A stretch of 37,493 bases of DNA from a virus (lineage: Duplodnaviria > Heunggongvirae > Uroviricota > Caudoviricetes): the IMG/VR virus record IMGVR_UViG_2585427621_000010; one strand, written 5' to 3'. Shown here piece after piece: positions 21,001 to 27,000 of the stretch; position 1 is the first letter of the stretch, and every line of letters begins with the position of its first letter. The position numbers are program-made.

Positions 21001-24000
21001 CACCTTATTTTATTATTTTTTGAGAGAGCTATTACTGAACAAAAAACGCTGACTATATACTCAAAACCAAACAACTATTCTGCCAATCAGGTATAATGGC
21101 AACACAAGGAATTACCGTGTTTTTGCCTTCTCTGCCCATACAATACGGACATATACTTCATACTCTATTGTAATATTTCCATCCATGCGAACAACTTCAT
21201 TTATCTGTAAATAATATTCAAAATATTTATCACAGAAATCGTTTTTGGCCATGAACTGAGCACACTATAAAGTCCGGAACTGACTCTTTGTTAAATTACC
21301 TTAACGTTACCAGTAACACCTTCATAACAAAACATCACGGTATACACTGGGTACGGATATATTCCTGTGCTCCTTCCAGTTGCTTCTGCATTGCCATCAG
21401 CCGTTCTCTGAGGATGAAATAATCCCGTTCAGCGGCTTCTGCCAGTCGGGGACCGGTTGCATTATCCACGCCGGAGGTGATGGGGGCTTTACGCAAGGAG
21501 CCTGGACAGTTGGCGTTGATGCGCAGGCGCTTACGACCAGCGGCAACATCAGCACGCAGAGTTTCATTTTCAGCTCTCGCATCGGCTAATTCCCTCGAGT
21601 ATCTGGCATCAAGTGCAGCGACATCACGCTGGCGTACCTGCATATCAGTAATTGTCACGTTCGCCAGCTTCAGCTCACTGGCTTTTTTATCGCGTTGCGC
21701 TTTGTAGGTAATGGCGTTATCGCGGTAATGATTCAGCCCCAGACTAAGCACACCACAGGCTACCAGCAGGACAATAATCACCACACACAGAACACGGTTC
21801 ATATCCCCCTCACCCCACCAGCCATGACAAAGTTAAGACGCGCCAGGCAGTGGAAAAGCAAATAGCAACCAGCATTAGTGAAAATGAAATGCCGACGATT
21901 ACACAGAGGATCTTCGCCAGCGTTATGAGCTTGTCTGACATGCTTAATCCTCTTCACGATTTCAACGCAATGACCAGTTTTGCCAGCCCATACAGCATCG
22001 GAGACACAGCAATACCGACCGCCACCCACTTAATAGCAAAAGCCAGCGCTCTGCTGACGTCATCAGTTACAGGCGCTTTCAGTTCAAGGCCGTTTTTCAT
22101 AGTCAATCTCAACAGAATTCGTTTATACTTTCCCATGTTCTCCCTTGCCTTACTCAAGGTCAGAAACACAAAACCCCGTTTGCGGCCAACAAACGGGGTT
22201 TTACTTTTATTCACTTAGTTTTTGCCAGTTCGCAGGATTTCGTGTTATCCGCCAGTGTGAGCAAACCGCATTTTTCAGCAAAATATTCTGCTTATCTGTC
22301 AATTCCCCAGCACGCCAGCGCGCTCTCCTGGTCACGCCGTGAAACCTGACCGTAGCAGTTGTTTGAGCGAATACGGCAGTCTCTGCCACCGTCCTTAATC
22401 CACCAGCGAATCGCCTCACACGCTCCCCTGCGATCACCTGCATTAATTCGTCTGTAAAACGTCGACGGGAAACACTTACCGGGACCAATGTTGTACGGAC
22501 AGAATGACGCGATCCCCGCTTTCTGGGGTTCGGTCAGCGGTACTTTAATATTGCGCTCCACCCACTCCAGCGCCTTATCACGTTCAATGGCGTTAACCTG
22601 GTCGCATTTTTCCTTCGACAACTTCATGCCCGGAACGACAGGTTTACCATCCACCAGGATGGCACCGCGGCAGATGGTCCAGATACCCGCACCATCACGG
22701 TATGCCGTGGTGTGGTTACCTTCTTTTTCGTCAAGAAACTGGTCGAGGATTTCAGGCGCAGACGCCCCTGCACCAATCAGCGCCAGAACGGCAGCCGACA
22801 GGCCGTATCTGATTTTTGCGTTCATGGATATTTATCAGGGTTTATCGATTTCAAATCCCTGGATATGTTAAGTCTTCAGGCCAGCGGTGGAGTCTTCAGA
22901 GAACCCGTAATTATTCCCGGTAGTTTTCCTCTGTAGGTTATCAACACATCCTGCGCCTCTAAAATTACGGGGCGCTTTTCCGGCAACGGACCATCCCCTT
23001 CACATAACCCGGCAGCAACATCCATGAAAAACTGCTTCGCCTGCTTTTTCGCCTCAGCTTCGTAAAACTCCAGCGTGGCACCTTCAGTACGGTCAAGACT
23101 AATCGCCACATCTGGCAACAACAGTGACGGATACCCACCAATTTCCGGTGCCACAGTAACAGTAATCTTATCCGGGTAATTATTTATCCCTTTAACACCC
23201 AGTTCGTATTTTTTCTTCATCGCTTTACTCCCCCCGCGCCGCCTTACGACGGTCCTCTCTGATTTTGAAATACAGGTTAGTCAGATACGTCAGCAGGCCA
23301 AACAGCAGACTCCCCAGCACACCGATTGCCACCCACTGGGACGGAGAGACTTTGTCCAGCAGCTGCAGTAACCAGTATCCCGTCCCCACCGCTGACGTGG
23401 TGTATGACACACCTGTTGTGATTTTTTCCATCTGATGTATGTCTCCGTCACCGCCGACAGAAAATGAAAGTAAAGGAAAACAAAAAGCCGCCAGTGTCGC
23501 CCACTGACGGCCAACGCCGGGAGCCGTGATTATGGCATTCAGGCTCTGCTAAAAATGCCAGATAACATTCCGGCTCCCCCCCTGATTCAGGTTATAAATG
23601 ACACAATATCTTGACAACACCCATCACTGTCTGTCAGAAAATGTACTGCCAGATATAAGTATCATGTGAAACCCAACTATCCTTCTTAGCCAGTATGAAC
23701 CGCCCCGGAAATCCTGGAGACTAAACTCCCTGAGAAAGAGGTAAACAGGATGACTAAAAATACTCGTTTTTCCCCCGAAGTCCGTCAGCGGGCGATTCGT
23801 ATGGTTCTGGAAAGTCAGGATGAATATGACTCACAGTGGGCGGCAATTTGTTCCATTGCCCCAAAGATTGGCTGTACGCCGGAGACTCTGCGTGTCTGGG
23901 TTCGCCAGCATGAGCGGGATACCGGGGGCGGTGATGGTGGGCTCACCAGCGCTGAACGTCAGCGTCTGAAAGAGCTGGAACGTGAAAATCGTGAACTGCG

Positions 24001-27000
24001 CCGCAGTAACGATATCCTTCGCCAGGCTTCCGCTTATTTTGCGAAGGCGGAGTTCGACCGCCTCTGGAAAAAATGATGCCACTGCTGGATAAGCTGCGTG
24101 AGCAGTACGGGGTCGGACCGGTATGCAGCGAACTGCATATTGCCCCGTCAACGTATTACCATTGTCAGCAACAGCGACATCATCCGGATAAACGCAGTGC
24201 CCGTGCGCAGCACGACGACTGGCTGAAGAGAGAGATACAGCGCGTATACGATGAAAATCATCAGGTGTACGGTGTGCGTAAAGTCTGGCGTCAGTTGTTA
24301 CGGGAAGGAATCAGGGTGGCCAGATGTACAGTGGCACGTCTCATGGCGGTTATGGGACTTGCCGGTGTTCTCCGGGGTAAAAAGGTCCGTACGACCATCA
24401 GCCGGAAAGCCGTTGCCGCAGGCGACCGCGTAAACCGTCAGTTCGTGGCAGAACGACCTGACCAGCTGTGGGTGGCTGATTTTACTTACGTCAGCACATG
24501 GCAGGGCTTCGTCTATGTGGCGTTTATCATTGATGTGTTTGCCGGATACATCGTGGGGTGGCGGGTCTCATCGTCTATGGAAACGACATTCGTGCTGGAT
24601 GCGCTGGAGCAGGCGTTGTGGGCCCGTCGTCCGTCTGGCACCATCCATCACAGCGATAAAGGCTCTCAGTATGTGTCACTGGCCTATACGGAGCGACTAA
24701 AAGAAGCCGGATTACTGGCATCAACAGGGAGTACAGGCGACTCGTATGACAACGCGATGGCTGAGAGCATCAATGGTCTTTACAAAGCGGAGGTAATACA
24801 CCGTAAGAGCTGGAAAAACCGTGCAGAAGTGGAACTGGCCACACTAACGTGGGTGGACTGGTATAACAATCGACGATTGCTGGGAAGGCTGGGCCATACT
24901 CCTCCGGCAGAAGCAGAAAAAGCTTATTATGCTTCCATCGGAAACGATGATCTGGCAGCCTGAGTTCACAGATAAAACACTCTCCAGGAAACCCGGGGCG
25001 GTTCAGTACTTCTCCGACGAAAGTCAGTACTGGCTGTTTTTTTATTATGCTGCCGGTGCATTTATCTCCAGCATCAGACTTTCTATCTCAACGCCATACG
25101 CTGCATTTTTTGTAACATCCGTCAGCGTCAGCGCATTCAGTCCCAGTGTCAGACTGTCTTTTATAACCTGGAATGCCGGGCCAGCCACTCCATTCAGTTT
25201 CGGAGTAACCATGGCACTGCCGGCGGTGAACACCAGCTCCAGCGTCTGCCAGTCGTTACCGTAATCGCCGAACTCCCCCAGCTTCGTGTTTCCGGCTTTC
25301 CTGTGATGCATCAGATTCACCCTGCCGTCAGTGGTCTGAGTGAAGTACGACATCAGGAACGGATTACCGGTACCCGTCATCGCCACACCATCAGGAACGG
25401 GAGCATCCGTATACAGATAAATCCCCAGCCCGAACTGATTGTTGGTCAGTGCGCCTGACAGGCGGAACTTACAGGTCAGTCTGCCGCCCTGTGTCAGCAG
25501 GGTAATTGCGTCATCCACCGGATGCGTCAGGGACCAGGTTTTATTGCTCTGCCTGGTGATCTTAAATACACCATCTGACAACTGAATTCCGCCATCCTTA
25601 ATGCTCCAGCCCTGCGCAGCAGCCTCTCCGGCTGCCGGCAGCAGGGAGATTGTGCGAACGGACGTATCTGCAGACGGACCCGATGGCGTGTTGCCGCCGG
25701 GCGAGGGTTTGATTTCCGGTGCCTTACCACTGATGAAGGCTGAGGTGCGCCCGGCTGCGTTCAGAATAGCGGTTGCAGACGATCCGGAACTAATGCTCCT
25801 GCGCGCCCATGACTGAATGTGTTCGGCGGTTGATGATACCTGGTTTCCATTCGTTCTCGATGCCGCACCGTAATATCCTGATGCCGGAATATCCGGATCT
25901 TCTGCCGGCGCGTTAGTGGCGGTATTGACGCCGTTACCGTCTGTCATGAAGGGCACAAAATAAACGCCCTCACTCTCCCTGTTTTTATACCCGCCGTACA
26001 CGGTGTCGTACTGGGTAGCGTATGTATTTTTCCAGTAATACGTCGTGTCACCACAAATCCACGGCACATCTGCAGCGCTGCCACCATGGCACTGCGCGTT
26101 AAACACGGAGAGGTCAGCACGAAACTGTGTCAGCATGGCTGTAAACAGCGCAGGTTGCTGTGCGTGGGTGGCGGCGCTCATGTCAAACTCACCCTGCATC
26201 CAGCAGACGGCCAGCAGAACGTTTTTGGGATTTTTCTGCAATGCCGCTTTTGTGCGGGAAATCAGATCCTGATATAACGGCTTGCCCACCCCCCAGCGTG
26301 CCGAATCCTGACTGGCCCCCGTGGACTCGCTGAATGTCCCCTCCGCGCCCTGGGTAAATGCCGAACCACCACGACAGCATGGTACCAGCAGGATCCCCGC
26401 GTTATTCGGGATATACGGGAGCAGTTTTTTGGCAATATGTAAACCCTGGCCGACACAGCCGTACTGCCCTTTGCTCAGGTCAGCCCTCGGATGATTCAGC
26501 GTACTCATATCCTGCACATCATGCAGACAGTGGTCAGCCGGAATAATATCGTTATATCTGCAGGCAGCCCCGCCCGGCGTCACTGTACTGCGGCGCGCCA
26601 GCTGTTTAATGCGCGGATCCGGAGCATCGTATGAATCCGGCAGCGGAAGCCCTTCACCGTAAGCCATGGCATTGGACTGCCCGGCCAGTACGATGACGTA
26701 GTACCAATCCGGCTCAGATGAAGGGCCGACCTGTGGCTCTCCTTCAATAGCCACCGCCTGCATCAGTGTGTACGGCGTAATGGCAACCGGTCCGCCGTAT
26801 GGCTGCCAGCCCTCTTTCAGTTTGTGTGTCAGCTTTTCCGCAAGGTCTGACGGCGACGCCGCCCTGACAACATCATAATGTTTAATCGACATCGAATTTC
26901 TCCCGTGTAGAGGAACAGAGTTAAAAAGCCGGAAGCGGAATCAAATCACAGGATGACCATCTGCCAGTGGCTGGTCGTAAAAAAAGGCCGCGCCATGCGC

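Follow-up and report, generated by a model that had tools for sequence, protein, structure and literature searches.

Does an insertion sequence that lies antisense across a phage late operon silence the lysis genes beyond it? The question is raised by an IS629 found in the 37,493-nt stretch of viral DNA analysed here (the window), where the element separates a nanS-p-like esterase gene from holin S. By its sequence, the window corresponds to Sp14 (CP-933U type), a defective prophage of E. coli O157:H7. It is collinear with Sp14 of Sakai, sharing 99.8% identity over 27.9 kb and 98.9% over 8 kb, but it derives from another O157:H7 strain, and its tail genes match poorly at about 7995-9650, which may be an assembly error or real decay of K, L and M. 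Sp14 carries tccP and pchC as cargo, and the PerC-family pchC is located at 20556-20870 in the window. The IS-free Sp14 loci of O157:H7 strains are integrated at serU (tRNA-Ser)/mtfA; the window stops short of the attachment end.

An earlier note on this DNA described a complete 1310-bp IS629 flanked on both sides by GTA, and direct reading of the window, together with the comparison of its ends and coding regions, bears this out. The parts of the element are as follows.

23696-25005, plus strand: complete IS629 (IS3 family, also named IS1203), 1310 bp, read directly, 100% identical to many genomic copies and annotated in Sakai Sp14
23696-23720, plus strand: IRL, left terminal inverted repeat, matching the reverse complement of the right end at 22/25 positions and including the exact 13-mer TGAACCGCCCCGG
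24981-25005, minus strand: IRR, right terminal inverted repeat, from the comparison of the ends
23750-24076, plus strand: orfA, 108 aa, HTH-containing N-terminal part of the transposase (PF01527 HTH_Tnp_1, E = 2.4e-12)
24073-24963, plus strand: orfB, 296 aa, catalytic part with the DDE integrase core (PF00665 rve, E = 9.3e-28; plus HTH_21 and rve_3)
24031-24147, plus strand: ALIL pseudoknot for the -1 frameshift to OrfAB (Rfam RF01497, 121.5 bits), with the A6 slippery run at 24068-24073
23693-23695, no strand: GTA target-site duplication, left copy (one GTA in empty sites)
25006-25008, no strand: GTA target-site duplication, right copy (one GTA in empty sites)

The sequence TGAACCGCCCCGG... 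is present at either end, within 25-bp imperfect inverted repeats of the form TGAACC...GGTTCA. The size of ~1.3 kb, the TG...CA inverted repeats, the overlapping orfA and orfB (-1 frame) and the frameshift signal are those of the IS3 family. The IS629 transposase OrfAB is produced by a -1 frameshift on the A6 run, assisted by the ALIL pseudoknot, and a conceptual fusion made by a -1 slip at this run gives a stop-free OrfAB of 404 aa. With its open reading frames and ends intact, the element is apparently competent for transposition. Many copies annotated as IS629 or IS1203 in E. coli genomes are 100% identical to it, and the IS629 of Sakai Sp5 differs by a single mismatch.

The insertion point had been placed between the esterase stop and the holin start. 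In agreement, the element occupies a 300-bp non-coding spacer, with 39 nt between the esterase stop codon and IS629 and 264 nt between IS629 and the holin ATG, and no coding sequence is broken. Its neighbours are listed here, in the order in which a late transcript would meet them.

25045-26892, minus strand: nanS-p-like sialate O-acetylesterase gene (SASA, DUF1737, DUF6645), upstream of the IS
25009-25043, plus strand: remainder of the target hairpin, comprising the loop, the right arm AGTACTGGCT and T7; the insertion has moved the left arm AGCCAGTA (23688-23695) 1.3 kb away
23225-23431, minus strand: holin S, P21-type class II (PF04971, E = 8.8e-33), the first gene past the IS
22292-22825, minus strand: endolysin R, a phage lysozyme (PF00959)
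21335-21802, minus strand: Rz spanin (PF03245)

Comparison with IS-free alleles of the prophage, which the earlier note had proposed as a check, gave a clear answer. The empty site in the Sp14 of ECP19-198 and LSU61 reads ...CTTAGCCAGTACTTCTCC..., with a lone GTA exactly as predicted, and since the IS-free alleles have a single GTA, the pair in the window is a true target-site duplication, its length falling in the 3-4 bp range of IS629 and the IS3 family. Sp14 of F6294 (O157:H7) likewise has no IS, so that the lone GTA is seen at this very point in the IS-free Sp14 of three O157:H7 genomes; F8492, F3113 and NZRM4165 are also IS-free O157:H7 strains. Folding of the empty site gives an intact plus-strand hairpin of -18.7 kcal/mol (z = -5.3) within 40 nt of the esterase stop, and this hairpin has been split by the insertion.

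The site itself is already known, being annotated in the reference genome (NC_002695.2 2693614-2694923, ECs_2744/ECs_2745) and catalogued in surveys of IS629 in O157:H7. Element, insertion point, orientation and flanking genes are all the same in the window and at site IS.15 of Sakai Sp14, with no difference at the IS. Rump et al. (2011) found IS.15 in Sp14 of all the A6 (typical O157:H7) strains that they tested, being one of only two IS629 sites with that distribution, while A5 and A4 strains had no IS.15 even though the target site was present (PMC3271280). We found the filled site in 318 of 5426 complete genomes, including Sakai, EDL933, TW14359, EC4115 and Xuzhou21. The event most likely happened once and long ago: an IS629 entered the spacer that separates the esterase gene from S in Sp14, a lambdoid prophage, with GTA duplicated and a small hairpin cut in two. 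Typical O157:H7 strains have the insertion in common, and the ancestral A5/A4 lineages have the empty site. The site is a lineage marker for typical O157:H7, and otherwise mostly a matter of bookkeeping.

Whether the element matters for the genes beyond it depends on how the region is transcribed, and the following features of the minus strand are relevant.

28432-29127, minus strand: full-length antiterminator Q gene (PF06323, positions 2-217 of 220, E = 1.5e-90)
28420-28448, minus strand: sigma-70 promoter-like site TTGCAA-17-TATATT just after the Q stop, a candidate late promoter pR' from a consensus scan only
28341-28368, minus strand: tR'-like terminator, AAAACCCGC-CCACA-AGCGGGTTTTTTT, a strong hairpin ~45 nt past the inferred start of the late promoter
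26986-27004, minus strand: native terminator-like hairpin upstream of the esterase gene and just downstream of an STnc100 match (dG = -15.4 kcal/mol)
23486-23512, minus strand: native terminator-like hairpin with U-tract between the IS and S, an 11-bp stem with 7 GC pairs followed by TTTTTGTTTT (dG = -21.7 kcal/mol)

The layout of a Q-dependent late operon is present, with an intact Q followed by a promoter-like site and a promoter-proximal terminator at 28448-28341, and IS629 is situated within a single transcription unit, after the candidate pR' and before the distal genes. The element is on the plus strand and the esterase gene, S, R, Rz and Q are all on the minus strand, so that its antisense orientation to late transcription, asserted earlier, holds. 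No minus-strand promoter-like site reached the scan threshold in 23431-25005, from the IS through to S; with the candidate pR' (28448-28420) upstream, late transcripts must therefore cross IS629, as had also been argued. An outward IS629 promoter driving S was considered and rejected on the result of the same scan. Sp14 Q is 72% identical to the phage 434 antiterminator (tblastn against phages), and its protein had no match among solved structures. Sp14 Q and Sp5 Q belong to different families, and the Rho resistance of Sp14 Q is presumed.

We consider that IS629 probably has little effect on the downstream genes and is most likely a near-neutral passenger for the expression of the lysis genes. 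Substantial polarity on these genes, which the earlier note had suggested together with an effect on morphogenesis, is unlikely, because late transcription is Q-antiterminated and already passes three native terminator-like hairpins, each stronger than the one weak terminator-like site seen in antisense IS629 (a hairpin and T-tract at 24996-24984). RNA polymerase modified by Q proteins resists termination, and suppression of polarity has been proven for lambda Q (reviewed in PMC12360218). In this sense, late transcripts would read IS629 antisense by means of a Q-modified, termination-resistant RNA polymerase, and as three native terminators have to be passed before S anyway, the element would add little. 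The hairpin at 23486-23512 belongs to the 14 kb over which the window and an IS-free allele are collinear.

The opposite reading, in which late transcripts end in 1.3 kb of untranslated antisense IS and S, R, Rz and the genes downstream are substantially reduced, seems to us doubtful, although several observations point to it. The element stands between the sole candidate late promoter and S; its antisense RNA has no long open reading frame likely to be translated; and this RNA is C-rich and G-poor, with a C/G ratio of 1.25 (the late mRNA on either side has 0.70-0.87) and values above 1.3 in 60 of 124 windows. Since this RNA is not translated and has a composition favoured by Rho, some attenuation across IS629 is possible, chiefly for polymerase without Q modification. 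In addition, mitomycin C does not significantly induce the transcription of Sakai Sp14, which is not packaged either (PMC2669165 for packaging). However, the other defects of Sp14, and the fact that it relies on regional replication from Sp15, account for the poor induction and the lack of packaging, and Asadulghani et al. scored the lysis functions of Sp14 as conserved (PMC2669165).

It is very improbable that IS629 is other than neutral, being kept in typical O157:H7 for attenuating a leaky, non-antiterminated expression of the lysis cassette, either by Rho termination in the C-rich antisense RNA or by convergent transcription; alternatively, the split hairpin may alter the fate of the nanS-p mRNA, and a related idea is that IS629 prefers the Q-to-S moron region or hairpin targets. 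Taken as domestication, with selection retaining an insertion that damps the leaky cassette or changes the stability of the esterase mRNA through the hairpin split, we hold it to be very improbable. Selection would explain the retention in all typical O157:H7 despite the IS629 excision promoted by IEE, and the presence of the site in every A6 strain tested and in the 318 genomes, as well as the disruption of a stable hairpin less than 40 nt from the esterase stop, would fit with it. Nevertheless, early fixation in a clonal founder gives the same distribution without selection, and loss is tolerated, as IS-free Sp14 is found in otherwise typical-looking O157:H7 such as F6294, which has the Sakai-type Sp5 IS junction.

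A relation between the element and the other lesions of the prophage had also been suggested, and it did not survive comparison with IS-free alleles. In the window the capsid gene E retains only 80/329 profile positions and J is split; alleles without the IS, that of the divergent LSU61 among them, have the truncated capsid gene and the frameshifts of J and integrase as well. Sp14 is dead for morphogenesis independently of the IS, owing to the truncated major capsid gene and the frameshifts in J and tape measure. Collinearity with IS-free alleles extends over 14 kb and 12.5 kb on the two sides of IS629 and both GTA copies are intact, so that there is no deletion next to the element. A search for further IS629 ends in the whole window, including the surroundings of the capsid, J and tape-measure lesions, found none. 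That adjacent deletions, documented for IS629 with IEE from a few nucleotides to >40 kb (PMC9943667), caused these lesions or are mechanistically linked to them is thus extremely improbable, given the collinear flanks, the shared defects and the single IS629 in the window. On the sequence comparison, a causal role of IS629 is not supported, and the Sp14 defects in the window should not be blamed on it. A role of IS629 in the Sp14 inversion was likewise considered and rejected, the inversion endpoint being a 174-bp prophage repeat and not an IS (PMC7430833).

The reading of IS629 as a near-neutral passenger can be contrasted with the classical polar IS insertions. Like those, the Sp14 copy is inside a transcription unit, upstream of distal genes, and the strand traversed is untranslated and C-rich; unlike those, the unit that it interrupts is itself antiterminated. 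Polarity of the classical kind is suppressed by lambda N or Q antitermination, and its suppression is therefore expected at the Sp14 locus (PMC12360218, citing Forbes and Herskowitz 1982).

A natural comparison is offered by Sp5 and the related Stx2a phages. The IS629 of Sakai Sp5 (NC_002695.2 1270503-1271812), with its one mismatch, is also antisense and between the esterase gene and S, and Asadulghani et al. (2009) placed it upstream of the lysis region (PMC2669165). VT2-Sakai (Sp5), Stx2 II, VT2phi_272 and the PA phage series all share with Sp14 an IS629 antisense to late transcription, in the interval from Q/pR' to S and beside a nanS-p-like gene, and this arrangement recurs in 55 genomes. 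The two cases differ in that the Sp5 copy is inserted in the 3' part of the esterase gene, which it truncates, with a 4-bp AAAG duplication, whereas that of Sp14 is in the spacer and flanked by GTA; moreover, Sp5, whose Q is of a different type (145 aa), is fully functional as a phage, while Sp14 is defective. Sp5 remains able to lyse cells and to move into K-12, and its packaged genomes reach at least 1e10 per ml (PMC2669165), so that fully functional Stx2a phages tolerate a one-base-different IS in the same orientation and relative position, which argues against polarity in Sp14. Expression data point in the same direction. Strain PA20 carries the Sp5 IS junction, and RNA-seq under SMX-TM gave log2 fold changes of 7.0 for stx2A/B and 6.4 for ECs1207 upstream of the IS, and of 7.3 for ECs1210, 7.9 for the holin and 6.3 for the endolysin downstream of it. 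Genes on both sides of the Sp5 copy are equally induced, although such fold changes could also arise if a constant fraction of the transcripts were lost at the IS. The Sp14 site illustrates how IS elements build up in the lambdoid Q-to-S region, where the DNA is non-essential and the transcribing polymerase ignores terminators.

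By sequence, the window can be identified as Sp14, a prophage of typical E. coli O157:H7, and it has 99.8% identity to Sakai Sp14 across 27.9 kb. The IS629 insertion it carries is already known, being annotated in the Sakai reference (entry 'IS1203 Family: IS3'; ECs_2744 and ECs_2745 are named as IS629 transposase), catalogued as IS.15 (Rump et al., 2011; PMC3271280) and common to at least 318 complete genomes. This count was obtained with a 1910-nt query spanning both IS629 junctions, which 318 of 5426 complete genomes fully cover, including Sakai, EDL933, TW14359, EC4115, Xuzhou21, SS52 and 86-24 derivatives. 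IS.15 was found in every A6 (typical O157:H7) strain tested and is missing from A5 and A4 strains, despite the presence of the Sp14 target site in them (PMC3271280).

The left end of the element, TGAACCGCCCCGG, begins at 23696 and the reverse complement of TGAACCGCCCCGG terminates at 25005 (sequence reading, 23400-25400), which gives a length of exactly 1310 bp with GTA directly outside both ends; the two terminal repeats agree at 22 of their 25 positions. A window-wide search found no further IS629 ends. The element and its surroundings contain the following features:

23225-23431, minus strand: holin S, P21-type
23512-23486, minus strand: native intrinsic terminator-like site, 11-bp stem, -21.7 kcal/mol, 55 nt upstream of S
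23750-24076: orfA, HTH_Tnp_1 domain
24031-24147: ALIL frameshift pseudoknot (Rfam, 121.5 bits)
24073-24963: orfB, rve, HTH_21 and rve_3 domains
25045-26892, minus strand: esterase gene, SASA/DUF1737/DUF6645 domains
27004-26986, minus strand: native intrinsic terminator-like site, -15.4 kcal/mol
28368-28341, minus strand: strong hairpin with T-run, about 45 nt downstream of the promoter-like site
28448-28420, minus strand: promoter-like site TTGCAA-17-TATATT, directly after the Q stop
28432-29127, minus strand: antiterminator gene Q, full length

A -1 slip on the run of six A at 24068-24073 yields a stop-free OrfAB of 404 aa, and many genomic IS629/IS1203 copies are 100% identical to this one. 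IS629 lies 39 nt from the esterase stop and 264 nt from the holin ATG, and the earlier description of a complete 1310-bp element with GTA flanks between these two genes is confirmed in every detail.

For the GTA flanks, the earlier note had proposed a comparison with an empty site. A query in which the IS629 flanks were joined through one GTA retrieved IS-free alleles, and the matches in the O157:H7 strains ECP19-198, LSU61 and F6294 all fall within Sp14 at its serU/mtfA locus. The sequence of ECP19-198 and LSU61 at this point, ...CTTAGCCAGTACTTCTCCGACG..., is identical to the empty site that was predicted and contains GTA only once; therefore, the GTA pair is a genuine 3-bp target duplication, as had been supposed. 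IS629 entered an inverted repeat of 10-11 bp (AGCCAGTACT...AGTACTGGCT) in its left arm, and the repeat is now split into parts at 23688-23695 and 25006-25043. This hairpin folds at -18.7 kcal/mol (z = -5.3) and is followed by a T7 run on the plus strand, antisense to the late genes, thus resembling a terminator for plus-strand transcription; on the late strand it is without a U-tract and starts about 10 nt past the esterase stop. The IS-free alleles of F6294 (L005) and ECP19-198 (L002), at locus position ~20600, share 99.9% identity with the window. The Sakai-type Sp5 esterase/IS629 junction is likewise present in F6294, which makes this strain look like a member of the typical lineage, and its empty Sp14 site may be the product of precise (IEE-type) excision instead of the ancestral state.

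It had also been suggested that IS629 may be polar on lysis and morphogenesis. The geometry of this proposal stands, with a candidate late promoter upstream and an antisense crossing of the element, but a meaningful polar effect on the late genes is unlikely. By their sequence, the promoter-like site and the hairpin at 28368-28341 form a classical pR'-tR' layout, after which come, in the late direction, three tRNAs, a TerB-like gene, an STnc100 sRNA match, the esterase gene, IS629 and S, and beyond S a DUF1327 gene, the lysozyme gene and Rz. The STnc100 match (Rfam, 100.8 bits; 27029-27201, minus strand) lies within the late operon between the DUF3927 and esterase genes, with the terminator-like hairpin 26986-27004 (minus strand) closely downstream. 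In the early-right region, a match to sok antitoxin RNA (114.9 bits; 31137-31311, minus strand) adjoins a hok/mok-type gene. No minus-strand promoter-like sites were found between IS629 and S. One observation speaks for polarity: the antisense IS629 RNA is untranslated and C-rich (C/G 1.25 vs 0.70-0.87 in flanking late mRNA), and Rho would exploit it on polymerase lacking Q modification; such polymerase, however, would fail to pass tR' anyway. With native terminator-like sites in the late direction at 28368-28341, 27004-26986 and 23512-23486, the last of which falls where the window and the IS-free allele are collinear, only termination-resistant polymerase reaches S, IS629 or not. The antisense element contributes a single weak candidate (5-bp stem, 24996-24984). 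Moreover, Q is intact and belongs to a family that occurs in working phages (72% identical to the antiterminator of phage 434).

Asadulghani et al. (PMC2669165) scored the lysis and packaging functions of Sp14 as conserved and found defects in its excisionase, general recombination, head, tail (both major and minor) and host specificity functions; it is amplified only through regional replication from neighbouring Sp15, with low-level excision and without packaging. Given the head and tail defects, the worry about morphogenesis is moot, as a capsid is unbuildable whatever IS629 does. Under mitomycin C, most genes of prophages other than Sp5, Sp13, Sp15 and Sp1 were without significant transcriptional change. 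There is a small residual possibility that the insertion is kept because it reduces leaky expression of the lysis genes or changes the fate of the esterase mRNA; IS-free Sp14 alleles in strains that otherwise look typical, F6294 among them, show that loss of IS629 is tolerated.

The suggestion that IS629 relates to the other Sp14 lesions is contradicted by collinear flanks and by lesions in IS-free alleles. IS629 with IEE produces IS-adjacent deletions in O157 (PMC9943667); the window copy bears no trace of one. Alignment against ECP19-198 is unbroken over 9647-23695 (99.87%) and 25004-37493 (99.90%), differs at the junction only by IS629 plus one GTA and reveals no adjacent deletion. The major capsid gene E (13404-13730, minus strand) retains only 88 aa, which cover profile positions 1-80 of 329; it directly borders V, the tail-tube gene, with the intervening genes missing, and this junction is identical in all Sp14 alleles examined, IS-free included. 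J is divided into two parts, and frameshifts affect the integrase in related genomes and the tape-measure gene in Sakai and F6294; truncation of the capsid gene and the frameshifts in J and the integrase are also annotated in IS-free alleles, including the more divergent LSU61. There is a discrepancy for the integrase, frameshifted in RefSeq in ECP19-198, LSU61 and F6294 (L002/L003/L005 ~36770-39050, outside the window) and apparently intact in Sakai Sp14, where low-level excision was detected (Asadulghani et al., PMC2669165).

Separately, segment 7995-9650 (minus strand), which holds tail genes K/L/M and the tape-measure 3' end, matches every complete E. coli genome poorly. Its alignment to Sakai reaches 93% identity, opens 31 gaps in 1274 nt and leaves two stretches unaligned (7995-8217 and 9474-9647), and its best match among 5426 genomes reaches 96.6% over 82% in three pieces, whereas the remaining window agrees with Sakai and ECP19-198 at 99.8-99.9% identity. 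Within the segment, the ORF of K (C40 peptidase) appears broken. The segment is either collapsed-repeat or low-quality assembly or strain-specific decay.

The Stx2 prophage Sp5 of Sakai offers a natural control for polarity. Its IS629 (L004 8504-9813; NC_002695.2 1270503-1271812) has one mismatch to the Sp14 copy and occupies the same relative place, with the stx2 and esterase genes on one side and S on the other, in the same antisense orientation to the late genes; unlike the Sp14 copy, it interrupts the esterase gene (ECs_1207) in its 3' part, and its duplication is the 4-bp AAAG. Asadulghani et al. (PMC2669165) noted it as 'upstream of the lysis region', and reported Sp5 packaging of at least 1e10 per ml and transfer to K-12, so a prophage with a comparable antisense IS629 stays functional. 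This junction is common to 55 genomes. PA20 carries it, and in this strain drug induction raised genes equally upstream (stx2A and stx2B 7.0, ECs1207 6.4 log2FC) and downstream of IS629 (ECs1210 7.3, ECs1211 6.9, holin 7.9, endolysin 6.3), although these fold changes are compatible with a constant partial loss at IS629 and so are supportive only. The Sp5-type arrangement also occurs in VT2-Sakai, Stx2 II, VT2phi_272 and the PA phage series. Recurrent IS3-family insertions in the Q-to-S region are a known feature of Stx2a phages (PMC10462455), and the repeated landing of IS629 there may reflect tolerance or target preference.
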